From a virus (lineage: Duplodnaviria > Caudoviricetes), in the IMG/VR virus record IMGVR_UViG_3300021387_001774, positions 64,001-128,000 of that record: a stretch of 64,000 bases of DNA; one strand, written 5' to 3'. The notes beneath the pieces are model-generated. The model was not told the origin of the DNA, ran no database searches, and was given only the letters and a program-made list of their open reading frames with translations. The first letter of the stretch is position 1. Each line of letters opens with the position of its first letter. Below, piece by piece: positions 9,022-30,929 of the stretch. A program made the position numbers and the translations under genes.

Positions 9022-9056
9022 TTTGTTATGTGATTAAAATATTTTAAAGGAGTTAA

Positions 9057-9401: not shown

Positions 9402-9407
9402 TTTAAT

Positions 9408-9435
9408 TAAAGGTAGGACTCTTGTCCTACCTTTA
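9408..9435. terminator. Intrinsic terminator (aaaggtagga/tcctaccttt family)
   Basis: Perfect stem; the same stem recurs at 62421-62449. Confidence 0.75.
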
Positions 9436-9437
9436 TA

Positions 9438-9987: not shown

Positions 9988-10001
9988 TTAACACCCGCAA
10001 A

Positions 10002-10056
10002 ACAGAAAAACTCGAAAAGGTTTTTCTGTACCAGCTCTCCTCTGGTTTCTTTTTTT
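10002..10056 (+). terminator. Family-1 double-hairpin 3' trailer/terminator, copy A
   Basis: acagaaaaac/gtttttctgt, then accag/ctggt, then a T-tract; homologous to 26465-26519. Confidence 0.8.
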
Positions 10057-10098
10057 GTTTTTAATAAAATAGCAGGATTAATATCCTGCTATTTTTTT

Positions 10099-11457: not shown

Positions 11458-11466
11458 AAAAGTCTC

Positions 11467-13062: not shown

Positions 13063-13114
13063 TTAAAAACTCCAAATAGTCAGGTATATAGATATGTTTT
13101 TGGAATAATATAAA

Positions 13115-13146
13115 AATAAGAGTGGTAACTTAATACCACTCTTATA
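13115..13146. terminator. Intrinsic terminator
   Basis: Stem ataagagtggta/taccactcttat. Confidence 0.75.
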
Positions 13147-13150
13147 TATT

Positions 13151-16100
13151 TTAATAAGAACCATCTTCATCAGAATTCATAAACTCTACACTATCATAAT
13201 AGTGTTCTCGTTTATATTCTGGAGAATTTTTATCGATTGTGATCTGATTACCATCACGATCATAATCTACTAAACCATAAATCTTAATATTATCACCTTT
13301 ATATCTAGCAAGAGCATTATAATATTCTTCTATATTACCATTAAATCTTATATTATTTAAGAAGTCAAGTATAATAGAATCGATAGCTTTAGTATCACCC
13401 ATATCAAATTCACGTTTTGCTTCAGCATGAGTTAGAAGTTCGGTATACAAAGCAGACTTTCTCTGCATATCTCTACTGAAAGCTTCCATTTGATTCATAA
13501 TACCAAATATATCTACAAAGTTTCTATTTTCTTGTAAGAATTCTTCTATAGGTGTTTGATATGGTAACAATTGAGAGAATTTATGGATATTATCCAAAAT
13601 GTATCTAGCTTTATTCAAAGGATTACTTGTACTATTTAATTTATTTATAAACGTTTCATCTGAAACGGTCATTAATACTGATCTAAGTGTTTTACCATTT
13701 ACAGTAATATTCATAAGTTTTTCATTTAAAACAGATGATAAAATGAATGAATCCAAACCATTTTCAATCATCATTATGATAAAATCAGTAAGTGCAGTCA
13801 ATTTATCACTAACTATGTAACTTATAAGTTGTTGTAAGACGTATTCATGTAATGGGTAAATAAATGCATCTACATCGTAATTTACCATATCTAAGTTCAT
13901 CAATAGATCTGAACGTTCAGCACCAATGAACATCTTATTAGACTCTTTATCAAATGCTATACCACTATAATCACCATATGTAATATTAGTTTTAGGAATT
14001 TCTGTAAAATCATAAGAAGTAGATTTTAATCCGCAAACTTTAATTCCCATATTAGTATTTTTAGTAGACAACGCAAAATATCGTTTACTTGAACAACCAA
14101 GGATCCAATATCCAGCAGCTATATTAGTTTCAGTAAATACTCCATTATTATAAACTCTTATACCAAGAGGTTCATCAAAGTTAGTAGCAAAGAGTTTATT
14201 ATTTAAGTAATACATTTTCCATCCAGTCTTTTCGATATCGTTTTCATTCATCAAAGGAGTAAAGTTATTATTATCTACTCTATAAAGGCCTTTAACATTA
14301 TTGAATTTCCAATATACTGTTTCATTAGGATCAAATACATAATATTCACCATTTGAAATATCTTTTGTACTATCGAAATCATATATCGTATTAGTTTCAA
14401 TAACTTTATTATAATTTTTATTATCTCCGCTATCATGAACTAAGAAATTTCTTGGTGTAAGACGCATCAATGTAACATTATTGAAAGCTTTTAATTTTGT
14501 ATTATTTTCTACTTCTAATTCAAGCTGTTCTGGATATATATACATTTGAGATTCACTAGTAACTTGACCAGCAGATGTATGTAAACTAGTAACAAATGTA
14601 GCATTATATTCACCATCATTACGTATATAATGAATAGAATCTTTAGACACATAATTCGGAATAACCAATCCTGGTATATCACGTAATGGATTAGATTCTG
14701 TATAATGTGTCAATGTTGTAGCATTTGTAGAATCAGTTGAAGAATATATCTTTAAGCCATTACTATGTGTACCAAGGAATACATAATAAGCTGTAGAACT
14801 CTTTGTTTTAGTAACTTCCACAGTAATCGTAGTATTAGTCACTGGATCTTTTTGTTGTTCTTGTACTTGACCGGTTACTGTAACAGTACGAGTTGTTTCA
14901 GCCACATATGTAAATCTATCGGTCAAATTTAATATAGAAAATTGTTTACTTCTATTTACAAATACAGGATTACCTACATTACTTGTTGGATATATTACGT
15001 GACCAAAATAATTACATTTCTGGATAAACCATCCATCACCATTATTTGTAACAGCTAAGAATGATCCATTATTCCAACGTCTGAGGCCATTATTATTCTT
15101 ACCAAGCAATAAGATTACACTATAAGCATCAATACCTTTAACTTCCCAGTTACTATAATCTTTTATACCTGTAGATTCAATTCTATTTCCTGTCCAATAA
15201 TATAATTCATCTGTATCTCTAACAAAGAAAACTACACCATAGAATTCAAATATATCTATCCAATTACCATCAGAAATATTAGTATTGATTACTTCTGACT
15301 TATCAGAATTAAGACGTTTTATACCATTGTTTTTAGTGTTTTCAGTTCCACCAAAGAACATTCCTCTAGTAGAATTAAATATAACTTTCCAGTCTCCAGT
15401 TATTACATTTGTATACTGAAGTCTTTCTAAGTTTTCATTATAACCAAAAATACCAAACTTATCAAATCCTTCAAATCTTGTAGTAAGTTTATCTTTATAA
15501 GGATAGAACATTTTATAGTCTAATCTACTTCTATCGTTAATTCCTTTCAAGAAATTAATTTCATTCCAATAGTAAGATTTAAGATAAGTTTTCAAGAATT
15601 CTTTATCATATTCTAATAAAGATTTTACAAATCCTATATCAGAAATTTCTCTAGCAAACATACTCATACAAAGATAGAAAAGATTAGCTATTGTATCTTT
15701 TTCAGCTATCTCATCTAGCTTCATAGCTTTAGAAGCCACATAAGATTTATAGATAAATACTAATACTTTAATATTCTCTAATAGAGATTCCTTTGTAGAA
15801 CTATTGAAAAGTTTAATCAAACCTGTTGGTTCAGTAATATCTGAAGCAGCAAATACGTAAGAAGATAATTCTAAGAAAGAATGAGAAATACTTGCATTAG
15901 CAATGCTTTTCTTATTCATGAAATTATAGAAATATGTTAACCATTTTATGATTGTATCTCTCATAGTAGTCATAGGAATATTAGCTGCATATCTTATGAT
16001 TGCTATAATTTCTTGATTAATAGCTGGATTAGCATCCAAGAATGCATCCATTTCACTTACTGTAGTAGGATTAGAAACATTTACTGATCCAGGAGTTATT

Positions 16101-17986
16101 GGAACACCATTTTCATCAGTAGCAACAGGAAGATCGCTATTAGATGGATCTACTTGGAAAGTTAATGCTCCTAATGCATTCTTTATATCGTCTATATTTT
16201 TAGCAGGATCTAATAAAAATCCTTCCATTTTTTGTGTATAATCATAGGCGGTTCGATCTATAGCATCCTGAAGATCAAACATTGCTTGAACACCCATGGA
16301 AGCACCTATAATACCTTTAGCCTTATCAAGTGATGCTTTAAGTGTCGTCATCGTCGGAATTTTGCACCTCTGGTAAAAGGCTTCATTAACCATACGATTA
16401 TTACCAAATATAGCATTAGAAGAAAGATAAATATAAATCTCTTTAATATTTTTATTATTTAATGTTATATATTCTGTATCGTCATATAAGAATGCTTTAG
16501 CTGAAGCACCTACTGCTCCAGTTACTTTTTTCTTATACTTTACACTTTCTGGAAGATCATTTTGTTTAGGATATCTATTACGTGATACTTTGTAAACTTC
16601 TGTAGATCCACCTTTGATAGCTGCTGATGATAGAACACCATATCTATCCATTTGAGTTTTACTCATATTGGCTCTAAGTGTTTCTATCTTTTCATTTACT
16701 TTGAGACGAGCTTTTTCAGAATCACTAATATAATCTTTAGAAAGATCATAGATATCACTATTCATCTGAGCTTCAAACATAGCATTTTGTGCTTGTTCTT
16801 TAAGTGCAGCTTTATCATTATTTACATTCTCTAAGTATCGTTTATCAGATTCTGTAGTTTGATGTGATTTAAAATCAGGCATCATAGTTTTACAATCACC
16901 TTCAGAGAATGCAAAACGTTTATTATATTTATCATCAGTAGATCCAAAATACTTTGGTAATAAATAATCTCCTGGAAGATCTTTAAAGAATTTCTCTATC
17001 TTAGAAACAGTTACGTATGTATATGAATTAATAATGAGAACTGCTAAGTTAGATACAATCATTTCTTCCATACTAGATATATCATTATCTAACTGATTTA
17101 CTACTGATAAATTATCTAAATAATCGTCTCTTTTTGTATAATCATCAGGATAAGCATCTTTTATATAATTTATAGTATTTAAATAATTTAAACGTTCTCC
17201 TTTATATTCTTCTATAGAAGCTATAACCTTTTTATAAATATAAAAAAGATTATCTGCACAAGAATTAGTAGAACAGTTAACTATATCACTTTCAAGATAT
17301 TTATATTCTTTATTGTATTTTATTCCATATTGACTATCAATAAATTCTAGAGTATGTACCCAGTCTCTAGAAAGAGCCATATTACGAATATAATGCTTAT
17401 CATAAGCTAAGTCAGCTCCAGCTTTATATAAAGCTTTAATAGTTTCACAGAATACTTTATCAGGAATAAATAAAGAAGAAACTAAGTTCTTAGTAAAATC
17501 TTCTATAATATTACTGATATAATTTATTGCTGCGTTCTCCAATTGTTTTATAGTATCGTTTAACATAGTCTTTAAAAGATTAGTTAAACTACCTAATTTA
17601 GAACCTAAGAAACCATTAAGTTTATTTAATAAACCATCTAGACCAGGTATTTTACCTAATAAACCAGAAGCTAATGTATTAAGTTTTGCTATACCATCTG
17701 ATAAGAATGTACCTACTTTTCCACTAACAGAAGAAGCTAAGTTTTTAGCTTTATCCTGTAGCGATGCAGCAGAAATTCCTCCAGACATAATACTATTTAC
17801 AAAACCAGACTTACCTTTTTCAGTTTCTTCTACTTCGTTATCATATAAAGATAAAGTATTATTAAATGGTTTCGCAGGATCAAATGCTCCACCAACACCT
17901 GGTAAATTACTCCCTATACTTGAAATCGTGTTGGAGCTACCAAGGTTTAAATTACTAACATCAAATGAAATGGGATTATCAGCCAT
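13151..17986 (-). CDS. Large virion protein with beta-propeller-like repeats (baseplate/tail associated)
   Basis: Repeats TNVITGDW, TNISDGNW, TNIAAGYW, TNITYGDY; late promoter at 18006-18017. Confidence 0.55.
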   Translation of the reverse strand: MADNPISFDVSNLNLGSSNTISSIGSNLPGVGGAFDPAKPFNNTLSLYDNEVEETEKGKSGFVNSIMSGGISAASLQDKAKNLASSVSGKVGTFLSDGIAKLNTLASGLLGKIPGLDGLLNKLNGFLGSKLGSLTNLLKTMLNDTIKQLENAAINYISNIIEDFTKNLVSSLFIPDKVFCETIKALYKAGADLAYDKHYIRNMALSRDWVHTLEFIDSQYGIKYNKEYKYLESDIVNCSTNSCADNLFYIYKKVIASIEEYKGERLNYLNTINYIKDAYPDDYTKRDDYLDNLSVVNQLDNDISSMEEMIVSNLAVLIINSYTYVTVSKIEKFFKDLPGDYLLPKYFGSTDDKYNKRFAFSEGDCKTMMPDFKSHQTTESDKRYLENVNNDKAALKEQAQNAMFEAQMNSDIYDLSKDYISDSEKARLKVNEKIETLRANMSKTQMDRYGVLSSAAIKGGSTEVYKVSRNRYPKQNDLPESVKYKKKVTGAVGASAKAFLYDDTEYITLNNKNIKEIYIYLSSNAIFGNNRMVNEAFYQRCKIPTMTTLKASLDKAKGIIGASMGVQAMFDLQDAIDRTAYDYTQKMEGFLLDPAKNIDDIKNALGALTFQVDPSNSDLPVATDENGVPITPGSVNVSNPTTVSEMDAFLDANPAINQEIIAIIRYAANIPMTTMRDTIIKWLTYFYNFMNKKSIANASISHSFLELSSYVFAASDITEPTGLIKLFNSSTKESLLENIKVLVFIYKSYVASKAMKLDEIAEKDTIANLFYLCMSMFAREISDIGFVKSLLEYDKEFLKTYLKSYYWNEINFLKGINDRSRLDYKMFYPYKDKLTTRFEGFDKFGIFGYNENLERLQYTNVITGDWKVIFNSTRGMFFGGTENTKNNGIKRLNSDKSEVINTNISDGNWIDIFEFYGVVFFVRDTDELYYWTGNRIESTGIKDYSNWEVKGIDAYSVILLLGKNNNGLRRWNNGSFLAVTNNGDGWFIQKCNYFGHVIYPTSNVGNPVFVNRSKQFSILNLTDRFTYVAETTRTVTVTGQVQEQQKDPVTNTTITVEVTKTKSSTAYYVFLGTHSNGLKIYSSTDSTNATTLTHYTESNPLRDIPGLVIPNYVSKDSIHYIRNDGEYNATFVTSLHTSAGQVTSESQMYIYPEQLELEVENNTKLKAFNNVTLMRLTPRNFLVHDSGDNKNYNKVIETNTIYDFDSTKDISNGEYYVFDPNETVYWKFNNVKGLYRVDNNNFTPLMNENDIEKTGWKMYYLNNKLFATNFDEPLGIRVYNNGVFTETNIAAGYWILGCSSKRYFALSTKNTNMGIKVCGLKSTSYDFTEIPKTNITYGDYSGIAFDKESNKMFIGAERSDLLMNLDMVNYDVDAFIYPLHEYVLQQLISYIVSDKLTALTDFIIMMIENGLDSFILSSVLNEKLMNITVNGKTLRSVLMTVSDETFINKLNSTSNPLNKARYILDNIHKFSQLLPYQTPIEEFLQENRNFVDIFGIMNQMEAFSRDMQRKSALYTELLTHAEAKREFDMGDTKAIDSIILDFLNNIRFNGNIEEYYNALARYKGDNIKIYGLVDYDRDGNQITIDKNSPEYKREHYYDSVEFMNSDEDGSY

Positions 17987-18046
17987 TGTTATACTCCATA
18001 AAATATATAAACTTGTCGTCCTTTAAGAAAATGAAAAAAAACAGGT

Positions 18047-18136
18047 TAATTATATATTATATTAATGAGTGTGTTACACTTATTATTAATTATATTATCG
18101 AAGTAGAGATGATACTACTATAAACATAAGGAAGAA
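18047..18136 (+). repeat. Family-2 promoter plus structured 5' leader, copy 1
   Basis: tatattatattaatga, hairpin, then gaagtagagatgatactactataaacataagg; also at 26518-26614 (+) and 62964-63058 (-). Confidence 0.9.
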
Positions 18137-18637
18137 ATGAAAATGACTAAAGAAGAAAGAAAAGAACGTAAGAGAAAATATGATAAGAAATATTATGAAT
18201 CTCATAAAGATGAAAAGAAGAAATTTTATAAGGAACATAAAGATGAACTTAACGAAAAAAGTAAGATGTATTATGAGACTCATAAAGATGAAAGGAAAAA
18301 GTATTATGAGACTCATAAAGACGAGTATAATGAAAGATCTAAAAAGTATAAAGAGATCCATAAAGAAGAAAAGAGAGAATATTCAAAGAAGTATTATGAA
18401 TCTCATAAAAATGAAATAAAAGAAAGATCTAAAAAATATAATAAGATCCATAACGAAGAAAGAAAAGAGTATTATAAGAAGTATTATGAAACTCATAAAG
18501 AAGAAAGGAAGAAATATCGTGAGGCTCATAAAGAAGCAAGAAAAAAGCATAATAAAAAGTATTATGAAACGCATAAAGATGAGCTTAAAGAAAAAAGGAA
18601 GAAGTATCGTGAGGCTCATAAAAAAGAAACAGTTTAA
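18137..18637 (+). CDS. K/E/Y/H-rich repeat protein (KKYYETHKEE repeats)
   Basis: 11- and 15-aa repeats; paralog of 62454-62963. Confidence 0.8.
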   Translation: MKMTKEERKERKRKYDKKYYESHKDEKKKFYKEHKDELNEKSKMYYETHKDERKKYYETHKDEYNERSKKYKEIHKEEKREYSKKYYESHKNEIKERSKKYNKIHNEERKEYYKKYYETHKEERKKYREAHKEARKKHNKKYYETHKDELKEKRKKYREAHKKETV

Positions 18638-18657
18638 GTGTCTTCCTCAAAATTAGA

Positions 18658-18695
18658 ATAAAGATGGGGAATACATCCCCATCTTTATTTTTTTT
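18658..18695. terminator. Bidirectional terminator
   Basis: Stem ataaagatgggga/tccccatctttat between convergent genes. Confidence 0.8.
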
Positions 18696-21600
18696 TTATT
18701 TTGTTAATACATTCATAAGAACTTTAAGTGAATTATCCTTTATCTTAATCAAAGATTTATGGAATAATTTACTTGTTTTATCCGTAGATGTATAAGATCT
18801 AGCATGACTTATTACATCTTGAATAATAGTTCTTATTCTCTTTGTGAAATATTCTAATTCTAGTTTAAAGTTTACCATCATAGATTTCAAGAAATAAGGA
18901 ATGTCTGAGAAGAAATCATAAGTAGTTTCTTTCAAGAAATAGTCCTTATCTGGATCGAATTCACCACCAAGTTTTATCATATATTCTTCATCAACTAATA
19001 TTACAAAATCCTCAAGAGTACCATTTGTACTAGTTATTTCAAAATATGTAGAATCAGTAAATTCTAATACACCTTCGATAGGTTCTATATAATTACCTGT
19101 TGGTGTTATTATACCATTCTCATTTTTATAAACTTGAATTTTATTATCATTTTCTTTCACAAGCATTAAATAATAATTTCTTTCGTGTAAAGTTTTATCT
19201 ATACTTAATATAGGTTTATCAAAATTATTTAATTTATAATCATAATCATAAATTTTATGAGTATTATCATCAATTGATGCATCGATATAATTGTCTTCTA
19301 TATCTACATATTTAAATAAATTACTTATTTTTCCATCTTCATCAAAATTGTTTACACCATATTTTAATACACTTCTATCATTTGCTAATGAACCGGAAAT
19401 ATTTAAATTGAATATAGCGAATCTTGATCCTGTGCTACTCATTAATTGTGAACTTGGATCAGTTTCCATAATATCATATTTTATTACAAACCGTATATAA
19501 TCGTTATTATTAATGGTATATTTTCCAACATATCGTGAAAATCCATAAGTTAATTCATGCATTGGTATTGATGGATCTTGATCATCAGCTGTAGGATTAT
19601 CGCTATTAATATTAAAACTATAAAATTTTTGTAATTTTGGTGTATCTATTGTATCATTTTCGTTTGGAGAATCATAATAAACAAAGTTTATATTATTTTC
19701 CGAATTTTTATAAGCTAAAAAACATCTATTAATTTCGTCTTTATACGCAAATATAATACTATCTGGTAAAGAATCTGAATATTCCTTTGGTAACATTATA
19801 AGTTGGTTCGAATTATTTAAAGTATAAAAAATACTTTTTCCACTCATTGTATAATCTTGTGTATTTGTTGTTATACAGTGTAGTATTAAACAACCAGTAT
19901 TAATTCCATCTTTTGTTTCTATTAAATCTTTATAGTCAAAAACTGTTGGATCATCAAACCCGTTTATTTTAATAAAATCTTTTTCAGTACAATCTATAAC
20001 ATCTGGATCAGAAATACCTTTAAAACCACTATATCTATAAGTTGAAGTATATTGATTTAATGTGCCCTCTATTTTATTAAATTTCTTATTAAACATGTAA
20101 ACTTCTGTTTTTTGATGTGGAGCTTCGGTTTCTGTATAATCTATACTTATAATCGTTGTGTCAGAATCAATATTAGAATATTTTTTATTATAATTATCAT
20201 CAAAAGTTGGGCTATTAATTGATGGAGCTATATCTGTACACTTTTTGAGGTCTCTTGTAGAATAATCATAATAATAAATTTGAAATTTATTTTTATCTGG
20301 ACCATCTTTAGTTATTTGATTACTAAAGAAAACATTGTCACCAAACATATAAACTTCATGAACGGTATCTTCGTTATTTGGAATTAACGTTATTGGAGCC
20401 CATGTTTGATCTTCATTCTTTAGATAATCAATTATTAACCCATCATCAAAAACAAACAATTTACCATTTGAATATTCTAGTTCAGAATCACCACCAACAT
20501 TGACACTAAATAACAATACTGGTTCATCGACTCCTTCTTCGAATCTATACATGTTCATACCAGTTTCGGTTTTTGTTTTAAGATATGTATAAGTTTTACC
20601 ACTATAAATATCTCTACCTGAACATAATGAATCACCACTAACAAGTGTATGAATCAATTTAGAACCAAATGTAGCTTTCACATATTCATTAGTATTTATT
20701 TCACCAACTTGAGACTTAGTATAATAATCCATATCTGGTTTAAAATCATTTTCTTTACCATCTGGATTTTGTGTATAATATGCTCCAATCCAAGAATCAA
20801 TAGTTCTAAAAGCTAAATCATAAGTAGATTCATAATATGTTATGCTTGGATCAAAATTTTTCTTTAAGTAATATTCTTTTCCTTCAACAAATGTTATTAC
20901 TCCAGGTTCTGGATTAAGTAGATAACCATTATCTGTTGATGCTAATATTTCATCATCATTTTCATCTGTAGTATAATAATCAAAAACATTTGATTCATAT
21001 TCAGTAACTATTAAATGAGCATCTGGATCATCTACTAAATCTTTCAATGATATTGCAGTATAATCATCATTATTTGAAGTATCTCCATAACAAACAAAAT
21101 ATTTACCATTGTTGATCTTATCTATATTTGGAGTAGTATCAGCTGTTTCAGAGAATCGAATATTCGTCTTATCAAAATCATCTTCATCAGCTTGTTCATA
21201 TCTATTTTGTCTATGTATATAGAAATTACCTACAGTATCTGGAGTAACAGTAGCTTCATCGATATTTACTTGTGTATATAATGTGTTTATAAAATCTTCA
21301 TCAGTACATAATACATATTCAACACCAGAATAATCATACACCTTTTTATTGTATGTGTAACCATCAGAGAATATCTTATTATTATCTGTACCGTCTTCTA
21401 ATGAATCATAAGGTTTCTCTATCCAAATACCACCATCAAAGATATAATATACGTCTCCTTCTTGAGGACCGTTATTGATCTCTTCTTGAGTAAGCGGAAC
21501 ATATGATTCGGTAGGTGTTCCATTCATTTTATAATATTCTACTCCAGGTTGTTTACCAGAACTCTTATCAAGAAGCTTATTAAATACATCTTTCATTACT

Positions 21601-24600
21601 GTAGGATGTATATAATAATCAACTCCTTTCTGAGGTCCTTCTGCTTTTTCTTCTGGAGTTAATGGAGTATAAGTATCTGTAACTTTAAAATCACCGTTCT
21701 CTTTTTCAGCTTTAACATATTCTACACCAGAATCCTCTATACGTTTATGGAAATATGTTTTCTGATATCCAAATGTATTATCATTCTTGAAATGATACAA
21801 TAATCTGTAAGGTACATAATAATCCTTAGTAATATCAAACGCATAAAGTGTTTCACCACCAATACCAGCATCAGCATATGGAATACCAGTATCAGGATCT
21901 GGTTGATCTAGTTTTATATAATAACCTACACCATCTACAGGATTTGGAGTTTCGTCTTTATTTATTTTCACAAATTCGAAACCAAGATTAAAATCATCAT
22001 CTGCACATGGAGTGTATGTATTAGCTATTGTATAGAAGTTATTTATATCATCGATTACTGTTGTACCTTCTCTATAATAATCAACCAATACATAGTTAGT
22101 TCCTTCAGCATTAGCTGCATAGAGAGGTTTACCTTCTCTTTCTTCTACAGGAACCGAAGAAAATTCAACAAGATCACCAATAAAGTATTCAGAAGGAACA
22201 AAAGTACGAGAATCATAACCTACAGTTTTAGCTTCAGGTTCAATATGATCGTAGTATTCTTTATCTGGAAGTTCTTTTGCTACATAATATTCTACACCAT
22301 CTTGAATACCTTGAGCTTTAGTTTCAGAATCGATCTGATTATACTTTGGTGTAAGTACAAAGTCATCAGGATTATCTACACTGGCTTTAACCATTTCCTT
22401 TCTTGTTTCTGAACCACCACCTTCTACTAATTTATAGATTTCTTCCTTTTCTACTTTGAAAGTCTGTGGATTGACTTCATATAATCCAAATCCTTCTTGG
22501 AAATCAGCTATATCTATTGTAGAATCTAATAATTCGCTAGTTTCAATTAATATATAATCACCGGAGTCATTATCATAGGAAGCATATTGTTTATTTGGAT
22601 CAATTACATCTAACGTCAAAGGATATGGTCCAAGTTCAGTAAAACTAATAGGATTTTTCAATTCTTCATCAGTATATGGTTCATATTCTGTATCAGAAAC
22701 TTTCTTATAGTATACGACATCACTCCGTGGTCCATTATCATACTCTTCTTGAGAAAGGTTTTCATAAACATCAAAGTTTTCAACAACCTCTTTTTCAAGA
22801 TAGTATTCAATATCAGGATTATATCCTTCAATCATTTCTGAACCATCTACTTTATCATAATAAGCTTCTGATTTAGTAATTTCTTCGGAAGTAACACTAT
22901 TATTTTGAATAACAAGAAGATTTCCTGCACCAAGAATTTCATTACAATCTTCAGAGCGCATTTGATTAATGATATTGAAGTTCTCATCCAGTTTGAAAAT
23001 ATAATCTTGATTTGTAGCAAAATAGTAATAACCATTTACATACACAAGATTTCTAATTTCATTATCTGGATTATTAGGAATAAAGAATAACTTACCATTA
23101 GCAACCTTTAAGAAGCAATTAATCTTAGGAAGTTCTTCTTCAACATGTACAAGCTTATGAATCTTAGAAGGATCCATCATAAATCCTTCAGTAGCTACAG
23201 CAAGTGTATAATCCAAATACTTACCATCATTAGCAAACTCTACATATCCATAATTCATATCAGGATTGTATACACCATGTTTATCGATATTATTGAATGA
23301 TGTTACTTTACCTATAAACCATGAACCAATTACACCAAATGTAGTACCAATACATCCATAATAATCGATATTAGGATCAGGACCATTCATCTTTTCTTCT
23401 ACTGAACACAAGTGTAATGACTTTATACTTGGATAGAAATATTTAGTTCCTTCTACATAACCTGCAGCCAATTCTTCAGGAGTTAATAATACATATTTAT
23501 CTACAATTCCAGTACTATCAGAATTATCATTTACGAGATTAGAAAGCTTACTCATATAATATGATTTATATGTAGTATTACGATTATTTATGACTTTTGT
23601 CGTTGTATATTCTACAGGATGTACTGTATTTGTATTTAAATCATAATAATAGTTTCCACCTTCATAAACTGTAAAGTAAATCTTATTCTCAAAAATAAGT
23701 GCATCGGAGATATCATAATCTTTCATAGCACTTACAATTTTGAAATTAGCAAACTTCATTGATGGATCATTAGGATTGTCTGTATACAACATCTTATGAC
23801 CATATCTAAAGAAGTAATACCTATTCTCTATAGGATTATGAAGTACTTTGAATTCTTCTTGGAAATTACGTTTATTTGTATAATCGAGAGCTCTTTCTAC
23901 CTTAGTAAGTTCATTATCAAGAGCAGGATTATCATATGTAAAATACTTATTGTCTTGGAAAATAACTTTAAGGGTATTAAAGTTTCCTCCATTAGTCATA
24001 GCAACACTTTCTCCATAAGAAATCTTACCATTATCCAAATTAGTAGAGAAATCTTTACGAATAGCTATAACATTTGTCTTATCAAATGTTTCAAATAATT
24101 TACACCAAGAACCACCAACTACACCAGTTCTCTCTACAACAAATGATTGTGTATTCATTTTACATACACCAACATCCGTCGCAAGATACACAATTTTACC
24201 GTTTACTATAGCATCATAACAAACATTAAAGAGATTATTCTGATTAATCTTTTCAGTAAATGAATCACCAGAAAGTTTATCTCTAGAATTAAATCTATAG
24301 ATACCATCTGATTTTAAAATCAAGATATCATAATCTGTGACTTTAACTACTTTATAAATAATAGAATTGTGTTCTACTATTGGAGTAAGCAGAATATCTG
24401 CATCTTGTGTATAAGAGTTATCGTTTATATCAGTAAATGATTCATCGTTAGTGAATGTATTTTCTACAGTTTCACTAGATATTTCAGTACCGTATTTAAA
24501 CTGAGAAGGTACAACTTTTGATTTAGAGAATGAATTCTCTACAGCAAACATATTTTCATTCTTAGCCATAAGACTAAGATCACCAACGAATGAAGGATCA

Positions 24601-25916
24601 GAAATATCAACAACAGTTTCACCCTTAGTATACTTAACAGGATCACCATTATCATACTTCTTATTAAGTTTTACACCTTCAAGGTAATTCTTCTTAACTT
24701 CTGTATCAGTATTAGAAATAATAAATCCAGATACAATATCCATAAGTTCATTCATTTTGACTTCATCAGGATTGTATATAGATTGCACATACTTTTCTTC
24801 ACCGATATTAGAAATTTCAGAATAAAACTGTTTTTCTTTTGAATCAGTTTCAAAATCCTTAAGTTCATCAGATCTAGCATTAAGAATAGAATTAGTTTCT
24901 GTTTTCTCAGAAGTCTTCTGATTTATATCATAAATATTATCGTCAGCATGCTCAAAATAAGCAACATCCTTATTATCATGATACATGAGACCTCTAGCAA
25001 ATTCAGAAATACCTTTCTTAACTTCATGATCATTGAATTTCTTAGAACTTGTTAAGAAGTAACCTTCTCTACCAGATTCTGTATTAGAAGGAATATTTGT
25101 CTTTACTTTAATATAGACATTGCCATTCTTTATATCACTTCTAGAAAGAAGCGTATTAAGAATCATATCGAAGTCATAAGTATTTATATCGAATTCTTTT
25201 CTATTGTTATATGTCTCTGAAAGAACTTTAAGATTAAATGGAGATTCTTTTGATTGATATTTAACGATAATGTTATAACCAAAATCACCATTCTTACCAA
25301 GAGATAACCATGTAATACCTTTAGAAGTATACAAGAAGATATCGAGAATAAGATTAGAGTTTATATAATCTTCGTTAGTAAAACCTTCATAAGTATTTAC
25401 TTTAGTAATATGAAGAATGTTATCCAGTTCAGTTATAAGTGATTTATCAGAAATCTTTCCACCAAACCATCTTATACCTAACTCAGAAGCAAGCATATTA
25501 ATACTTCTATCCCAATCTTCTACCGCATTAGTATCTACTTTATTAGAAATAACATTATCCGTTACACAACTATGATTAAAGAGATTTGATTCATAAGGTG
25601 TAACGAATGTAGTAATCTTATTCTGGAAATTCTCTATAGCATCATTAAGACGTTCAGTAATATGAGAATCTACATCAATTTTAAAATGATCTAATACATA
25701 TTTAAAATGCTTAGTACGTTCATAAATAGTCAAAAGATTAACTTTCATTGCATTACGAGTATCAGTAATCTTTTGAAAGTTAGAATCGATCAATTCAGAG
25801 AGTTTATTAAAATATTCTATTAACTCATTAAGTGTCGTCAATACATTATTTCTTGACGCTAACTTGGTTAATGGGGCTCTATAGAACTCTCCTTTAAGTT
25901 TATCATTAATAACCAT
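18696..25916 (-). CDS. Giant tail-fibre/adhesin-like virion protein (2406 aa) with nested repeat modules
   Basis: Propeller-like region, many Y-x-x-L...P-x-x-G-x-x-YY and F-x-x-D-x-x-YY modules, late promoter at 25957-25968. Confidence 0.6.
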   Translation of the reverse strand: MVINDKLKGEFYRAPLTKLASRNNVLTTLNELIEYFNKLSELIDSNFQKITDTRNAMKVNLLTIYERTKHFKYVLDHFKIDVDSHITERLNDAIENFQNKITTFVTPYESNLFNHSCVTDNVISNKVDTNAVEDWDRSINMLASELGIRWFGGKISDKSLITELDNILHITKVNTYEGFTNEDYINSNLILDIFLYTSKGITWLSLGKNGDFGYNIIVKYQSKESPFNLKVLSETYNNRKEFDINTYDFDMILNTLLSRSDIKNGNVYIKVKTNIPSNTESGREGYFLTSSKKFNDHEVKKGISEFARGLMYHDNKDVAYFEHADDNIYDINQKTSEKTETNSILNARSDELKDFETDSKEKQFYSEISNIGEEKYVQSIYNPDEVKMNELMDIVSGFIISNTDTEVKKNYLEGVKLNKKYDNGDPVKYTKGETVVDISDPSFVGDLSLMAKNENMFAVENSFSKSKVVPSQFKYGTEISSETVENTFTNDESFTDINDNSYTQDADILLTPIVEHNSIIYKVVKVTDYDILILKSDGIYRFNSRDKLSGDSFTEKINQNNLFNVCYDAIVNGKIVYLATDVGVCKMNTQSFVVERTGVVGGSWCKLFETFDKTNVIAIRKDFSTNLDNGKISYGESVAMTNGGNFNTLKVIFQDNKYFTYDNPALDNELTKVERALDYTNKRNFQEEFKVLHNPIENRYYFFRYGHKMLYTDNPNDPSMKFANFKIVSAMKDYDISDALIFENKIYFTVYEGGNYYYDLNTNTVHPVEYTTTKVINNRNTTYKSYYMSKLSNLVNDNSDSTGIVDKYVLLTPEELAAGYVEGTKYFYPSIKSLHLCSVEEKMNGPDPNIDYYGCIGTTFGVIGSWFIGKVTSFNNIDKHGVYNPDMNYGYVEFANDGKYLDYTLAVATEGFMMDPSKIHKLVHVEEELPKINCFLKVANGKLFFIPNNPDNEIRNLVYVNGYYYFATNQDYIFKLDENFNIINQMRSEDCNEILGAGNLLVIQNNSVTSEEITKSEAYYDKVDGSEMIEGYNPDIEYYLEKEVVENFDVYENLSQEEYDNGPRSDVVYYKKVSDTEYEPYTDEELKNPISFTELGPYPLTLDVIDPNKQYASYDNDSGDYILIETSELLDSTIDIADFQEGFGLYEVNPQTFKVEKEEIYKLVEGGGSETRKEMVKASVDNPDDFVLTPKYNQIDSETKAQGIQDGVEYYVAKELPDKEYYDHIEPEAKTVGYDSRTFVPSEYFIGDLVEFSSVPVEEREGKPLYAANAEGTNYVLVDYYREGTTVIDDINNFYTIANTYTPCADDDFNLGFEFVKINKDETPNPVDGVGYYIKLDQPDPDTGIPYADAGIGGETLYAFDITKDYYVPYRLLYHFKNDNTFGYQKTYFHKRIEDSGVEYVKAEKENGDFKVTDTYTPLTPEEKAEGPQKGVDYYIHPTVMKDVFNKLLDKSSGKQPGVEYYKMNGTPTESYVPLTQEEINNGPQEGDVYYIFDGGIWIEKPYDSLEDGTDNNKIFSDGYTYNKKVYDYSGVEYVLCTDEDFINTLYTQVNIDEATVTPDTVGNFYIHRQNRYEQADEDDFDKTNIRFSETADTTPNIDKINNGKYFVCYGDTSNNDDYTAISLKDLVDDPDAHLIVTEYESNVFDYYTTDENDDEILASTDNGYLLNPEPGVITFVEGKEYYLKKNFDPSITYYESTYDLAFRTIDSWIGAYYTQNPDGKENDFKPDMDYYTKSQVGEINTNEYVKATFGSKLIHTLVSGDSLCSGRDIYSGKTYTYLKTKTETGMNMYRFEEGVDEPVLLFSVNVGGDSELEYSNGKLFVFDDGLIIDYLKNEDQTWAPITLIPNNEDTVHEVYMFGDNVFFSNQITKDGPDKNKFQIYYYDYSTRDLKKCTDIAPSINSPTFDDNYNKKYSNIDSDTTIISIDYTETEAPHQKTEVYMFNKKFNKIEGTLNQYTSTYRYSGFKGISDPDVIDCTEKDFIKINGFDDPTVFDYKDLIETKDGINTGCLILHCITTNTQDYTMSGKSIFYTLNNSNQLIMLPKEYSDSLPDSIIFAYKDEINRCFLAYKNSENNINFVYYDSPNENDTIDTPKLQKFYSFNINSDNPTADDQDPSIPMHELTYGFSRYVGKYTINNNDYIRFVIKYDIMETDPSSQLMSSTGSRFAIFNLNISGSLANDRSVLKYGVNNFDEDGKISNLFKYVDIEDNYIDASIDDNTHKIYDYDYKLNNFDKPILSIDKTLHERNYYLMLVKENDNKIQVYKNENGIITPTGNYIEPIEGVLEFTDSTYFEITSTNGTLEDFVILVDEEYMIKLGGEFDPDKDYFLKETTYDFFSDIPYFLKSMMVNFKLELEYFTKRIRTIIQDVISHARSYTSTDKTSKLFHKSLIKIKDNSLKVLMNVLTK

Positions 25917-25990
25917 AAAATACTCCTTATGGATAATATTTAAATGAATTTACGTATATTATCTTGTCATTTTTATTAATGTTTATGTAT

Positions 25991-26152
25991 TTTATAACTA
26001 CTGTTAAACCTGACCTCTTAATTATATATTATATTAATGAAGTAGGTCGTATGACTGAAACATAATAATTATAAGAGGGATAATAAGAGAAATAAAACCC
26101 CACCTCAGAGAAGAGGTCTACCGAAAGGAGATATAAACACAAGGGAAGAACT
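25991..26152 (+). repeat. Family-1 promoter plus structured 5' leader, copy B
   Basis: Near-identical to 9438-9603, with compensatory changes in the first hairpin. Confidence 0.9.
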
Positions 26153-26452
26153 ATGGAAAAAACATATTCGATAATGCCGAATGGTATTAAAATACAGGAT
26201 GACCTGTTACCCATGTTATCATGGAGCAGGTGCTCCGGTGATGCCGGTTATAACGGCAGGTCATGGGACGGTTCAGAATCATGGACCGTCCTGGTTGAAG
26301 CACAATGCGGTGAAAACCGCATTGTAGCTTTGGGATATGAATCCCGAGATCCTGATGGAAATTGGGATGTCGGCGTATATCCCGACCACGGCATCTTCGT
26401 AGGTGAAGATGCCTACGAAGATGCCTGTGCTTGCTGGAGGTTCGATTGGTAA
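26153..26452 (+). CDS. Hypothetical acidic, Trp/Cys-rich cargo protein of cassette B
   Basis: ATG immediately after the conserved leader; GC visibly much higher than the genome background. Confidence 0.8.
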   Translation: MEKTYSIMPNGIKIQDDLLPMLSWSRCSGDAGYNGRSWDGSESWTVLVEAQCGENRIVALGYESRDPDGNWDVGVYPDHGIFVGEDAYEDACACWRFDW

Positions 26453-26464
26453 GCATAGGTTAAA

Positions 26465-26519
26465 ACAGTAAAACTCCATAAGGAGTTTTCTGTACCGGAT
26501 TGCTACGGTTTCTTTTTTT
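26465..26519 (+). terminator. Family-1 double-hairpin 3' trailer/terminator, copy B
   Basis: acagtaaaactcc/ggagttttctgt, then accg/cggt, then a T-tract. Confidence 0.8.
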
Positions 26520-26614
26520 AATTATATATTATATTAATGAAGTACGTTATACTTATTATTAATATTAATTGAAGTAGAGATGATACTACTATAAACATAA
26601 GGGAGAAAAGAAAT
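26518..26614 (+). repeat. Family-2 promoter plus structured 5' leader, copy 2
   Basis: Shares gaagtagagatgatactactataaacataagg with the 18047 copy. Confidence 0.9.
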
Positions 26615-27439
26615 ATGAGCAACGTTTGTGACTGTTGTAAAAAAGGAAAACCTTGGATTACAATTAAAGAATACCAAGGAGAATGTAGAGGTTCTACAGA
26701 AGTACATTTATGTAGCGATTGCTATAAAAATACTCCACAAATAGAATCAGAAAAGTATAATGATCCTGAAATGAATTATCCTAGAGATGATTCAATTTAT
26801 TCTTGTGATTATGAAAAATGGAGGTCAAGTATGATTATTCTCACATCGATTAAACGTTTACGTGGTGAAAAACCAAACAGACGTAAACCAACTACTAAAC
26901 CAAACTATAGAGAGTTTGAAGTTTTCCTTGACAAAATTGTATCCTATGCTATACAGAGTTTGAATCATTTTAGAACAAATGATTATCTCGAAGATCTAGG
27001 TTTTGGTAGATATAGATATTCGACAAAATTTCAATATGTATATACCGCTTATAATAAAAAGCCTGGAGAAAAAATTCACAGTTTAACATACCGCAATTTG
27101 TTTGCAGCATTGTATGAATCATTAGAAGGCTACGAAACTGAATATAAATTTCTTGAGTATGATAAAGATGATCCATTTAGTGATGCACGTTATTCTTCTG
27201 GTAATCGACTTGAAGAAATTGTTAAGACTATCGAAACCATTTATAAAGATTTACGAGACAAAGAATTGATTGATCCAATATTTGTATTAAATAAAAGATT
27301 TGGATTAAAAAATATTTGCTCTAATATTTTGAATAAATACGGTTTTTACAATATCGGTATAGTTAAACATGAAGACTTAACAATGGATATAATCTTCTAT
27401 TGTAAGTACGATGAACTCAAAAAAGTTTGGGAAAAGTAA
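26615..27439 (+). CDS. Hypothetical early protein with N-terminal Zn ribbon
   Basis: CDCC...HLCSDC at the N-terminus. Confidence 0.75.
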   Translation: MSNVCDCCKKGKPWITIKEYQGECRGSTEVHLCSDCYKNTPQIESEKYNDPEMNYPRDDSIYSCDYEKWRSSMIILTSIKRLRGEKPNRRKPTTKPNYREFEVFLDKIVSYAIQSLNHFRTNDYLEDLGFGRYRYSTKFQYVYTAYNKKPGEKIHSLTYRNLFAALYESLEGYETEYKFLEYDKDDPFSDARYSSGNRLEEIVKTIETIYKDLRDKELIDPIFVLNKRFGLKNICSNILNKYGFYNIGIVKHEDLTMDIIFYCKYDELKKVWEK

Positions 27440-27441
27440 AA

Positions 27442-27476
27442 TCCTGGGAGTCATATGACTCCCAGGTTTATTTTTT
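27442..27476. terminator. Bidirectional terminator (cctgggag/ctcccagg family)
   Basis: Same stem at 51833-51871 and 61879-61905. Confidence 0.8.
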
Positions 27477-28628
27477 TTATTTTCCGTTTACGTAAACTTT
27501 TTCAGGTGCATTAATAGGATCTTCATAAGAATTATCCTTATTAAATGTCTTAATTTCATTAACCATAGGCTCAACAATAGATCCATCAACAGGACTGTAA
27601 AGTTGTGCAGGTGGCAATCTTTCAGACGTAACACCGTATGATTTGAGAGCTTCTGTACGAGCATCTTTGATTGATTGATCATAAATGTATTCGTTTGCAG
27701 CAGCCATCTTTGCATTCTGGCTGATTTCGATACCCTTAATAGTCTCTTTATCAGCATTCTGCAATTTCATCATAAAGTTTTCATACATGTAAGCAGGAAG
27801 CATCTGATCGAAGTAAGACTGACCAGCAAGACCTGTACCAGCAACAATGTACTTAGCAAGAATATTTACCTCAGGACCATCCTGGAAAATACCAGTAAAG
27901 TCGACCTGCTTATCAGAGATAGCAGTATCGGAACCAATTTCCTGAGATTCCCACTGAGAAGTACCATCACCAGATGTCGGCCATACTTCGTGCCAAATAC
28001 ATGCGTATTCGATATCTCCAGGACGACAAGTTGGTCCCATGAAGATATACATCAATGTACCACAGTAATTAGGACGAATAAATCTAAGATCACGTCCATA
28101 CATGTGGTGAATACCTGTAATTGGGTCAGTAATACCGTACATCCAATATCTCATCAACTTACCAAGACCATCACCAGTACATGTAACTGTACTCAATGAA
28201 ACAGTCTGGTTGTTCTGCTTGAGGTTACCTGGGAATGACATCGTTTGACCGTTTGCACCAAACGTGATGTCACCAGCAGCTGCAATTGTATTATCCTGAA
28301 GACCAGAAACACTCTTAACAGCATTCTCAAGGAAGAATTTAAGATATTTTACAGCAGTTTTATTAAAGAATGTTGGAACTTTGAGCCATTTAACGATAAA
28401 TCTACCAGCACGGATAGGTTCAAGAGCACCGATGTAATTCGGGTCGTTGGAACGAACACCATTCTGAGATAACAGGTTATCAAATACAGAAGATGCCATA
28501 CCAACGGTGGTGTTATCCCAACCGAAATCATCATGGTGCATACCATTGATACCACCAATACCGTAGTCACCTTTTTTACCTCTCAAGTTTCCACGTAACA
28601 TTCCATCCATTATTTCAGCATCAGCCAT
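27477..28628 (-). CDS. Probable tail tube protein
   Basis: Directly downstream of the sheath gene; GGAGG RBS; high-expression codon bias; YWMYGITDPITG segment reminiscent of jumbo-phage tube proteins. Confidence 0.65.
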   Translation of the reverse strand: MADAEIMDGMLRGNLRGKKGDYGIGGINGMHHDDFGWDNTTVGMASSVFDNLLSQNGVRSNDPNYIGALEPIRAGRFIVKWLKVPTFFNKTAVKYLKFFLENAVKSVSGLQDNTIAAAGDITFGANGQTMSFPGNLKQNNQTVSLSTVTCTGDGLGKLMRYWMYGITDPITGIHHMYGRDLRFIRPNYCGTLMYIFMGPTCRPGDIEYACIWHEVWPTSGDGTSQWESQEIGSDTAISDKQVDFTGIFQDGPEVNILAKYIVAGTGLAGQSYFDQMLPAYMYENFMMKLQNADKETIKGIEISQNAKMAAANEYIYDQSIKDARTEALKSYGVTSERLPPAQLYSPVDGSIVEPMVNEIKTFNKDNSYEDPINAPEKVYVNGK

Positions 28629-28643
28629 CTATTTCCTCCTATA

Positions 28644-30743
28644 TTAGCCTTGTCTGTCAGCAATAATCTTGACATTCCATGTCTCGAAGATATCTGGGAA
28701 CAAGACGGAAAGTTCACAAGTGGCCAAATTCAACAACTTATCACGATCTGTTTGATACAGATTGTAATTGATAATAATGTTATTTGGATACCTTGAAGAA
28801 AGAGTTCTTGTCAATTCAGCAGTTGCGTTAGCAATAGCTGTATCGGCACCCTTAGTATCAAATGTATACTTAACGAGAATAAGTTTTACAATACGACGAA
28901 GGTCATTTACTAAGATACCATTTCTGAACTCTGCGAGTTTAGAAATACGTTCTGTGTAAAGAGAAGAGTTACTATAGAAGTAAACATTCTTTCCAGTAAA
29001 GTTACCCTGAACAGGAGCACCAAGAGCCTTACCAAGATCAACAGCCCAATAAAGGTTATTTTGCTTAGCAAGTTTTTCCTGATATCCACGAGGCTTGGAT
29101 TCCTCTACTACCCAGTCGAAAATAGTCTTTCTTACACAACCCGGATCACCATTCTGCTGTGAAGCATAGATAGAGAACGGAGCTGTATTATAAAGTCTAG
29201 TAAGACCATATGCGAATTCGTATGTACCAGTAACTCTAACATTAGTTACTCTGTCTGCAGTAATACCACAGTGAGGAACAATAGCAAAGTTTTCACCACC
29301 GTCCATAGATTCAGCAAATGATCTAATCTGCTTAGCTACAGCGACAGCCTGTTCCAAATTTTCTGGGAAACCACAGTCAAATACACAACACATATCACGA
29401 CGATAGTTAATCATATTAGCCATCGCACGTTTTACATCCATATCATAATTTGCGTCGTATACGATACCAGCTGTACACTTAAGTACATCCATGAATGTAC
29501 CAGTATCAACATCACCAGCAAAGAACTTCTTCAAGAGACGATTTCTTTCAGCATGGAGATCTTCACCTGTAAGAGTATCAAGATCACCATCAGAACCACC
29601 CTGAAGGAAGTGATAGTTATTAAGATCCATAGAAGAATCTGCAATAACTACGTTATCAAAAAGGATACCCTCTTTACTTACACCATTGATGAAGTCGAAA
29701 TCATCAATGCTTGTAGGCCTAGACATTTCATAATCGGGGTCGATACCTTCTGTGATAATTGGTTCCTGTGAAAGAATTGCATTAATTTCATTCTTGAGAA
29801 CTTCATAGTTTTCAACATATGGTTCAATAGCAATTTGTTTTTCTCTTGGACCATCGAAGTTCTGATATATTTTCTGGAGAGATTCTGATGCAGTAATTGT
29901 TTTAGAAACAGTTGCATCAGGGTTGAAAGAGAATGAAAGTCCATTACCGTCAGAAAGAATATCTACACCAGATGTAGACTTCTTTACAAGGAACAACTGG
30001 TAACGACGACCATCACCTACTTTAGCATCTCTCAGCAAGTCATTTATAATTCTAATACCATAGTTCGTACCAGATTTACCAACAGAGTAGTAATTAGCGA
30101 AGAACAATGGGACCATCTTGAAACCTTCATCATCCGTAAGGATTGTTGAGAATTTCTGTTTGATCTGATTAATTGAAGAAAGTCTATTCATTTCATCTTC
30201 GGTAGCTGAAACGAATGCAACTTTAATTGCGATACCTGTTGTCGTAGCAGGTACAACTTCTTCTACATCGATTGTTTCTTCTTGTTGAGTATCTGGATTA
30301 ATCTGGGTCTGTTGAACAGTTCTTGTAACTGTTAATGGTATTTTATCACCATTCTCATCAAGAGCATATTCGCCGTATCCATCTCGTTTATACAACGGAA
30401 TATCTGTAACAGCCTTTACACCTACTTTAAGAGCAAGATGTGCTACTTTAGCATTTTCTGGTAAAAGGCGGCAGAGATAACAAGTTCCACCAGCATCAAA
30501 TACTTGGTTAACATTAAGGTTCTGTTGACCATAAGCATTAATATTTGCAAAGTCAGATCCGAACTCATTCAATACTTGATTGAATGAACTAACTTCAATA
30601 ATCTTGTTTGCTTTACCGTCTGAAGCAAAGACAGGATGGATTGAAGAAAGGATACCTAAAGAACTTGTGGAAGAAACGGTACGTATAGAGTTGTCTTGTA
30701 AGACAATGCTGCTAATACCGAAACCACTATCTTCTATTGCCAT
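28644..30743 (-). CDS. Tail sheath protein
   Basis: ~700 aa; N-terminal FG...YGQ...GG.CYLCRL, LQGGSDG and sheath-like C-terminus. Start moved to ATG 30743 on the AGGAGG RBS; late promoter at 30824-30835. Confidence 0.8.
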   Translation of the reverse strand: MAIEDSGFGISSIVLQDNSIRTVSSTSSLGILSSIHPVFASDGKANKIIEVSSFNQVLNEFGSDFANINAYGQQNLNVNQVFDAGGTCYLCRLLPENAKVAHLALKVGVKAVTDIPLYKRDGYGEYALDENGDKIPLTVTRTVQQTQINPDTQQEETIDVEEVVPATTTGIAIKVAFVSATEDEMNRLSSINQIKQKFSTILTDDEGFKMVPLFFANYYSVGKSGTNYGIRIINDLLRDAKVGDGRRYQLFLVKKSTSGVDILSDGNGLSFSFNPDATVSKTITASESLQKIYQNFDGPREKQIAIEPYVENYEVLKNEINAILSQEPIITEGIDPDYEMSRPTSIDDFDFINGVSKEGILFDNVVIADSSMDLNNYHFLQGGSDGDLDTLTGEDLHAERNRLLKKFFAGDVDTGTFMDVLKCTAGIVYDANYDMDVKRAMANMINYRRDMCCVFDCGFPENLEQAVAVAKQIRSFAESMDGGENFAIVPHCGITADRVTNVRVTGTYEFAYGLTRLYNTAPFSIYASQQNGDPGCVRKTIFDWVVEESKPRGYQEKLAKQNNLYWAVDLGKALGAPVQGNFTGKNVYFYSNSSLYTERISKLAEFRNGILVNDLRRIVKLILVKYTFDTKGADTAIANATAELTRTLSSRYPNNIIINYNLYQTDRDKLLNLATCELSVLFPDIFETWNVKIIADRQG

Positions 30744-30929
30744 AAGGTTCCTCCTAGCTAGGAAAAATTGAATATTCAATAAATCACACGATATTTTAGT
30801 ACCTGTGTAATTGACATTTAGTATATTAATATGTTTTATCGGTCCGTTTTTAGCTTCTTTTTATTTATATATTATATTTATAGATACATAACAAGTTTAT
30901 GTATACTAAAAGTTTATAGGTGGGTTACT

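Follow-up and report, generated by a model that had tools for sequence, protein, structure and literature searches.

A tail-region protein of a jumbo phage with an internal beta-propeller-like domain on a putative out-and-back stalk of split modules

RESULTS

Layout of the P0001 gene

P0001 is a protein of 2,406 amino acids (aa) encoded in the tail-gene region of a jumbo phage of the class Caudoviricetes (IMG/VR record IMGVR_UViG_3300021387_001774; 263,686 bp, estimated to be 94% complete). We analyzed a stretch of 64,000 nucleotides (nt) of this record (bases 64001-128000, GC content ∼29%), which is called the window here and to which positions refer unless stated otherwise. The list of open reading frames (ORFs) and their translation place the gene at 18696-25916 on the minus strand. 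The initial annotation had read P0001 as a tree of nested beta-modules, in which N-terminal half-modules (openers) stay unclosed until their C-terminal counterparts (closers) appear beyond a large domain at the tip. The parts of the protein are given below; bit scores refer to the closer matrix described in the next section, and conservation was judged mainly from nine full-length relatives (P0004-P0011, 2391-3086 aa).

22917-25916, minus strand: N-terminal part, aa 1-1000, conserved; by eye, the first ∼130 residues are helical and aa ∼520-1000 are beta-propeller-like
22464-22916, minus strand: aa 1001-1151, read from the sequence as hairpins or modules in series that seem complete (closed)
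22359-22463, minus strand: N-half of trunk module 1, aa 1152-1186, with opener ..EMVKASVDNPDDF; M1175 and F1186 invariant in the nine relatives
22272-22346, minus strand: first hairpin of trunk module 2, aa 1191-1215, KYNQIDSET..GVEYYVAKE
21729-22271, minus strand: module 2 insert, aa 1216-1396, which follows the YY strand; strongly conserved with many invariant residues, module parse ambiguous
21687-21728, minus strand: opener of trunk module 2, aa 1397-1410, GVEYVKAEKENGDF
21603-21674, minus strand: first hairpin of trunk module 3, aa 1415-1438, TYTPLTPEEKAEGPQKGVDYYIHP
20691-21602, minus strand: side branch of module 3, aa 1439-1742, located behind the YY strand and containing its own opener/closer pair
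21291-21326, minus strand: side-branch (site A) opener, aa 1531-1542, GVEYVLCTDEDF; recombination junction, conserved in P0004-P0007 and P0012
20745-21290, minus strand: swap site A, aa 1543-1724, 182 aa
20715-20744, minus strand: side-branch (site A) closer, aa 1725-1734, FKPDMDYYTK, 20.3 bits
20667-20690, minus strand: opener of trunk module 3, aa 1743-1750, NEYVKATF; Y1745 invariant
18960-20666, minus strand: tip domain, aa 1751-2319, all-beta and propeller-like; no other region of the protein diverges as much as its distal part
18930-18959, minus strand: closer of module 3, aa 2320-2329, FDPDKDYFLK, 16.8 bits
18885-18914, minus strand: closer of module 2, aa 2335-2344, FFSDIPYFLK, 8.3 bits; F2335 and Y2341 invariant
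18840-18869, minus strand: closer of module 1, aa 2350-2359, FKLELEYFTK, 13.9 bits; F2350, L2352, Y2356, and T2358 invariant
18699-18839, minus strand: C-terminal tail, aa 2360-2406, 47 residues, among the best conserved segments

The motifs named in the initial annotation were recovered in order. The three trunk N-halves end in DNPDDF (aa 1181-1186), ENGDF (aa 1406-1410), and VKATF (aa 1746-1750) and are joined by the 4-aa linkers VLTP (aa 1187-1190) and KVTD (aa 1411-1414), and the three C-terminal half-modules follow at aa 2320-2329, 2335-2344, and 2350-2359 with the linkers TTYD (aa 2331-2334) and MMVN (aa 2346-2349). The beta-rich domain that precedes the closers, put at ∼550 aa beforehand, corresponds to aa 1751-2319 (∼570 residues) and is all beta in the model presented below. 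A nested subtree had been proposed for each trunk module; such inserts are present in module 2 (aa 1216-1396) and module 3 (aa 1439-1742), but module 1 has a short turn only.

Identity among the relatives over aa 1-1000 is 44 to 100% per alignment window (in the two most distant relatives, one window drops to 37%), and over aa 2371-2400 it is 70 to 100%, the most distant relatives included. The segment aa 1051-1170 is variable, with identity down to 10 to 36% in P0006-P0011. The C-terminal tail is probably helical, as judged from its sequence, and could serve as a docking element.

The split module is shared with a second stalk protein

P0014, the other stalk protein of the window (56923-60189), is encoded by a different gene of the same genome and has a more regular stalk. 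By comparison with it, the module consists of four strands, namely, a hairpin formed by beta1 and beta2 (Y..T.EE......YY.K), then beta3 (Y.....(D/E)DF), and then beta4 (F..D..Y[YF].K), and foreign sequence is accommodated either between beta3 and beta4 or after beta2. The proposal that P0001 reuses the module of the P0014 stalk held up in a profile comparison with hhalign (trunk profile; probability of 92.4%, E value of 5.1e-7, 189 columns); with tblastn, the P0001 trunk and the P0014 stalk gave a weak match (E value of 0.002).

A matrix for the closing strand (10 residues) was trained on 13 copies from P0014 and from P0012, a stalk protein of a T4-like phage, and on none from P0001. At a threshold of at least 8 bits, it returned six hits in P0001, starting at aa 1676, 1688, 1725, 2320, 2335, and 2350, compared with 0.3 hits per shuffled sequence, and the last three coincide with the C-terminal motifs. 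One or two closer motifs scoring 14 to 24 bits were also seen with this matrix in other large ORFs of the genome (661-2971 aa), so that many large proteins of this phage may be built with the split module. These ORFs, in genome coordinates, are as follows.

259798-261783, minus strand: closer-bearing ORF
177753-181565, minus strand: closer-bearing ORF
54724-62613, minus strand: closer-bearing ORF
19974-23372, minus strand: closer-bearing ORF
8533-17448, minus strand: closer-bearing ORF

Openers and closers are balanced on the trunk

Unequal numbers of the two half-modules, which the initial annotation had held to be incompatible with its model, were not seen on the trunk. Three openers and three closers are kept in all nine full-length relatives, and a fragment (P0015) likewise keeps exactly three closers. 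The aromatic residues of openers and closers are invariant or nearly so across the nine relatives, with F and Y conserved in the closers. The P0012 family (P0012, P0013, and P0017), which has module 3, swap site A, and the tip in common with P0001, has six YY hairpins on the way out (aa 146-300) and the same number of closers on the way back. Among the relatives of P0014, outgoing and returning units number 5 and 7, 5 and 7, 8 and 10, 8 and 10, and 9 and 11, respectively, which is a constant offset (an FY variant in P0022 and a YL variant in P0020 were counted by eye), and tandem 45-residue units on the outbound arm match tandem 25-residue units on the inbound arm in P0023 (3 versus 3) and P0021 (6 versus 6). 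This lock-step change of both arms in the P0014 relatives is hard to explain unless the two halves belong together.

Reading the protein like matched brackets gave a balanced trunk, but a fully objective parse failed inside the inserts, where the assignment is ambiguous. The inserts of modules 2 and 3 admit one balanced manual parse with eight openers and eight closers, in which several elements score below 8 bits. The claim of a branched architecture is borne out by a second swap site, which lies between another opener/closer pair and which in one relative, P0007, holds a second tip-like propeller.

Predicted models and the direction of the returning chain

Contact between closers and trunk was modeled by docking the closer segment (aa 2316-2362, 47 residues) on the trunk (aa 1165-1752), with both partners entered as nine-row alignments. 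The interaction score (ipSAE) was 0.52, 0.51, and 0.53, compared with 0.00 for all three controls, at least 87% of contacts agreed between runs, and the predicted local distance difference test score (pLDDT) of the partner was at least 70. Among solved complexes, 58 of 80 reach the pass mark, and among mismatched pairs, 2 of 110 do; scores of 0.60 or lower were obtained for only 7 of the 80 solved complexes and for both of the passing mismatched pairs, and the result was graded as weak support. AlphaFold2 did not resolve the trunk, and the models as a whole are thus neither a clean pass nor a failure of the expectation that the C-terminal strands contact the trunk N-halves. Of the out-and-back claim, then, the balanced counts and the covarying arms stand, and a physical contact between the trunk and the C-terminal strands is weakly supported.

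Several observations weigh against an out-and-back arrangement. Parsing the side branches involves some subjective choice, as openers vary in length and many closers score 3 to 7 bits, a range in which 3.3 closer hits per shuffled sequence are expected. The docking score does not tell which closer meets which opener. The AlphaFold2 model of aa 1165-2364 (11-row alignment) has a pLDDT of 51 and a predicted template modeling score (pTM) of 0.42, most of the trunk and closers are below a pLDDT of 50, and a single closer out of the three is built as a strand; in a model of the tip alone, the flanking opener and closer are not paired as a hairpin. In the longer model, the module 2 insert is mostly below a pLDDT of 50, the first hairpin of module 3 is built as a strand, a one-turn helix, and a strand (pLDDT of 53 to 82), and a Foldseek search with this model returned propellers only, with template modeling (TM) scores of ∼0.1. 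With regard to function, no homology to any characterized receptor-binding protein was found in searches of Pfam, PHROGs, the PDB, and phage records.

P0001 could also have a linear topology, in which ordinary tandem beta-repeats flank the propeller and the C-terminal strands form a sheet of their own or pack on the propeller. The closers at aa 2320-2359 and their linkers could, from their sequence, form a self-contained three-strand meander, the paired trunk was not built by AlphaFold2, and both arms of P0012 resemble plain tandem repeats with unit lengths of 26 and 29 residues. A linear chain, however, gives no reason for the balance of 3/3 and 6/6 or for the lock-step growth in the P0014 relatives; nor does it account for ..DF openers that are not followed locally by a closer or for cassettes of 182 to 557 aa that are bounded by a conserved opener and a conserved closer (see below). 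The docking score of 0.52, compared with 0.00 for the best control, also speaks against it, if weakly. We regard the linear arrangement as unlikely and retain the out-and-back topology below.

The tip domain resembles beta-propellers

The AlphaFold2 model of the tip (aa 1740-2335, 12-row alignment) is all-beta, with ∼46 strands, a pLDDT of 74.9, and a pTM of 0.74. A search of 48,161 chains with VIA-align gave beta-propellers as the top matches, the best being 9jmj_C (DPP4; Z score of 12.3, root mean square deviation [rmsd] of 4.9, 300 residues aligned), followed by the prolyl oligopeptidase 5n4e_A (Z score of 11.1) and eIF3b, 4u1f_B (Z score of 10.9, 355 residues aligned). The endosialidase of phage phi92 and bacterial sialidases were matched with Z scores of 9.1 to 9.2 (rmsd of 5.2 to 6.7, ∼255 residues aligned); Z scores of 7 to 8 are typical of VIA-align, and a Z score of ∼9 lies in the range rated common. 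All Foldseek matches were propellers as well (E values of ∼1e-8), but with TM scores of only ∼0.2. Judged from the model, the tip is thus probably a beta-propeller-like fold; the range aligned covers ∼480 residues, and the closest structures are propellers with eight and nine blades.

Look-alikes of the tip in the ESM Atlas score 0.84 or less and are uninformative. The best hit of a shape search there (TM scores of 0.47/0.53, 378 residues aligned) was a cluster of 503-aa hypothetical proteins, the few classified members of which belong to the Spirochaetota; the match is too weak to count as evidence and is recorded as a lead.

Alternatively, with the topology as proposed here, the propeller could have an enzymatic role (e.g., as a glycosidase or depolymerase) or be a structural element of the baseplate, and the variability of the tip would reflect substrate diversity or drift. 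Sialidase and phi92 endosialidase propellers are among the structural matches, the fold is often enzymatic according to the phiKZ atlas paper (PMC13250141), and the tip has one conserved stretch resembling an Asp box (..NEDQTW.., with an invariant W). That stretch is single and was read by eye, the sialidase Z scores are of a common size, and the better matches are nonenzymatic propellers or the propeller domains of peptidases. No enzyme signature and no match to any enzyme family was found in Pfam or in a profile search of PDB sequences. Replacement of the distal half by recombination, described next, is typical of host-range determinants, although the same is true of depolymerases. An enzymatic or structural tip seems improbable to us, and we continue to treat the tip as a probable host-binding head, a reading that draws on gene position, the pattern of conservation, and analogy.

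Tip and side-branch cassettes are exchanged at half-module boundaries

The suggestion that tips are swapped among relatives was confirmed, and the recombination boundaries lie at the edges of half-modules. P0004, an 89% relative, is 90 to 100% identical to P0001 in most 30-residue windows and 36 to 66% identical over aa 1981-2310. Codon analysis of this pair gave a synonymous divergence (dS) of 0.6 to 1.1 and a ratio of nonsynonymous to synonymous divergence (dN/dS) of 0.15 to 0.58 over aa 1801-2300, with a dS of 0 to 0.23 elsewhere; a high dS together with a dN/dS below 1 indicates that the tip was imported by recombination rather than shaped by local positive selection. Nucleotide identity to P0004 rises from 63 to 80% to 97 to 100% exactly at residue 2320, the start of the first closer. 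In the same manner, P0012, P0013, and P0017 are mostly 98 to 100% identical outside the distal tip (at least 90% per window) and 14 to 32% identical within it, and the divergent stretch begins directly after the opener (Y[IV]K) and stops ∼8 residues before the closer FEEGVDYFTK.

The same opener and closer enclose four versions of swap site A, with lengths of 182 (P0001), 341 (P0005), 437 (P0006), and 557 (P0007) residues. Alignments of P0001 with P0005, P0006, P0007, and P0012 break right after F1542, and behind each variant the closer is kept as FK.(D/N).DYYTK. In P0007, the site holds another domain like the tip, with 28.5% identity to it over 515 columns, so that P0007 would be two-headed, which fits the branched reading.

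A diversity-generating retroelement was considered as the source of tip variation and rejected, as no direct repeat of at least 30 nt that could be its template matches the tip-coding DNA within positions 10000-30000 of the window (the rest of the genome was not searched for a reverse transcriptase) and the divergence includes synonymous sites (dS of 0.6 to 1.1), which fits recombination.

Site A and the tip are also shared with a T4-like phage. The gene of P0012 lies on the 145-kb T4-like contig ERZ12302850 (L002) in a baseplate cluster of the T4 type that also encodes gp25, a gp6-like wedge protein, and an S74 fiber; the Gp23 capsid protein is encoded nearby. Over 27 kb, this contig resembles the genome studied here only within the shared stalk/tip cassette. 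The first part of the cassette (L002:10852-11203) is a match of 352 nt with 87.8% identity, corresponding roughly to aa 1426-1542, and stops at the last residue of the site A opener (F1542); the second part (L002:12242-12757) is a match of 527 nt with 66% identity and begins at the site A closer. This pattern of similarity suggests that unrelated phages sharing a habitat exchanged the cassette recently.

Database searches

Neither Pfam nor PHROGs gave a meaningful match to whole P0001 or to four pieces of it, tblastn with aa 1150-2406 found no match in 50,697 phage records, and sequence searches of the PDB with tip and trunk profiles were negative. An exhaustive phmmer search with aa 1165-2364 against 1.84 billion representative proteins returned three clusters only, too few to deepen the alignment. 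With no entry in Pfam, PHROGs, or the PDB and three clusters among 1.84 billion proteins, the module family will be missed by annotation pipelines. Paralogues of the N-terminal 1,000 residues were looked for among the other genes of the genome, and none were found.

Genomic neighborhood

The genes upstream of P0001 on the same strand are as follows.

28644-30779, minus strand: tail sheath gene
27477-28628, minus strand: tube-like gene

Downstream of the tube-like gene, the order is P0001, P0002 (1,611 aa), a phosphoesterase-like gene, and a gene for a protein of 2,811 aa, and the rest of the window encodes a terminase, a DnaB-like helicase, a primase, and the beta subunit of a phage-type RNA polymerase. 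T4-type Gp23 and gp25 were not found in the genome, an absence that counts for little because the Gp23 control matched nowhere.

P0002 (13151-17986, minus strand) has no family match; both of its ends read as helical, with propeller-like repeats in the center (aa ∼850-1350), and from its sequence it may follow the same plan, with the ends at the base and a beta domain in midchain. The 2,811-aa protein (312-8747, minus strand) reads like a tape measure protein, with long helical stretches and Gly/Ala-rich hydrophobic segments. One segment occurs in it in two long internal copies (..KDYFKLG..CSGFANCLDAALFGIPS.. and ..KEYFKIE..CSGLANCLDAALFGIPS..), and its only PHROG match is weak, to a PHROG of unknown function.

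Between P0002 and P0001 lies a plus-strand ORF of 166 aa (18137-18637) made of 45-nt (and 33-nt) tandem repeats. Its 46-nt leader (18097-18142) is 93% identical to the leader (26568-26613) of a plus-strand ORF at 26615, and P0001 thus lies between two small cassettes on the opposite strand that share a leader. On an 86.7-kb contig of a relative that encodes P0009 (L003), the P0001 homologue sits among different neighbors; since the flanking genes of L003 map to 35, 128, 257, and 262 kb of the genome studied here, gene order is heavily rearranged between the relatives.

DISCUSSION

A model for P0001

We are moderately confident that P0001 is a tail- or baseplate-associated host-recognition protein that carries an internal propeller on an out-and-back stalk of split modules. 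The role in host recognition is argued from the position among tail genes, the baseplate context of P0012, the likeness of the tip to the distal propeller of phiKZ gp131, a recombinational turnover that is limited to the tip, and the conservation of the chain ends. In this model, the conserved N-terminal part (aa 1-∼1000) would attach P0001 to the virion, and the outgoing chain would then form a short stalk from three copies of the four-strand beta-module. In each copy, the next element would be inserted between beta3 (..DF/..TF) and beta4 (F..D..Y[YF].K), with side branches after the YY strand in modules 2 and 3, and the innermost position would be taken by the ∼570-residue beta-propeller-like domain as the probable binding head. 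The chain would return via three closing strands of 10 residues separated by 5-residue linkers and end at the base in the conserved 47-residue tail. Gene position, conservation pattern, and analogy are consistent with both chain ends being anchored. Because the variable elements would lie in hairpin loops between conserved half-modules, homologous recombination in the flanks could replace cassettes and leave both ends unaltered.

A broader and more tentative idea, which we find attractive but would not bet on, is that the split module is a general socket, in that an opener/closer pair holds any cargo and at the same time provides homologous flanks, so that phages of unrelated lineages (here a phiKZ-like jumbo phage and a T4-like phage) trade heads and side-branch cassettes and branched, multiheaded adhesins arise. 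If true, the model describes a new design of receptor-binding scaffold in which both chain ends are constant, explains the movement of cassettes between unrelated phages by boundaries that lie at half-modules, and provides a natural, recombination-friendly display scaffold; the socket, if it holds, would be an organizing principle for receptor-binding proteins that has not been described before.

Comparison with known systems

In textbook phage fibers, the N terminus attaches and the C terminus binds the host, and host range changes by C-terminal swaps. The "evolved" Dit/Tal proteins have a single-level insertion into the galectin-like domain of a small hub protein; unlike P0001, they have no stalk and no nesting, and the sequences are unrelated. 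In these proteins of siphophages of Gram-positive bacteria, carbohydrate-binding modules are inserted in loops (PMC6669499, PMC10688798), and the likeness to P0001, with its probable binding head, is that a host-binding module is inserted into a conserved tail protein and not placed at the C terminus.

The fiber protein gp131 of phiKZ has a distal seven-bladed propeller that is thought to contribute to host recognition (PMC13250141). It and its paralogues resemble P0001 as tail proteins of a jumbo phage with a beta-propeller at the distal end (PMC13250141), but the gp131 propeller is C-terminal on a linear chain and that of P0001 is internal and larger. No sequence similarity between P0001 and gp131 was found in PHROGs or with tblastn against phage records.

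Recursive domain insertion is best known so far from the Si3 insertion in the beta' subunit of cyanobacterial RNA polymerase, which consists of recursively inserted hybrid-motif/HABAS domains (PMC13114784, PMC10895346) and, with six levels, is reported as the deepest case among 2.7 million domains surveyed (PMC13114784). As proposed for P0001, recursive insertion of the form A1-B1-C-B2-A2 builds an elongated arm with bifurcating nodes in Si3, a likeness of topology only. Si3 belongs to a different fold family and protein context, has no exchangeable cargo, and is not a virion protein, and the P0001 module (∼45 residues, four strands, no Pfam match) has no detected homology to it. P0001 would thus extend recursive domain insertion to virion proteins.

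The closest comparison is with P0014, which shares with P0001 a homologous module, the closer motif, and a proposed out-and-back arrangement, with covarying arm counts among the P0014 relatives. P0014 is a regular, unbranched nest with a tip that lacks a large domain; P0001 has only three trunk levels but in addition side branches, two swap sites, and an innermost propeller of ∼570 residues. What P0001 adds to P0014 is branching, a large innermost cargo domain, and the exchange of cassettes at half-module boundaries, including exchange with unrelated phages.

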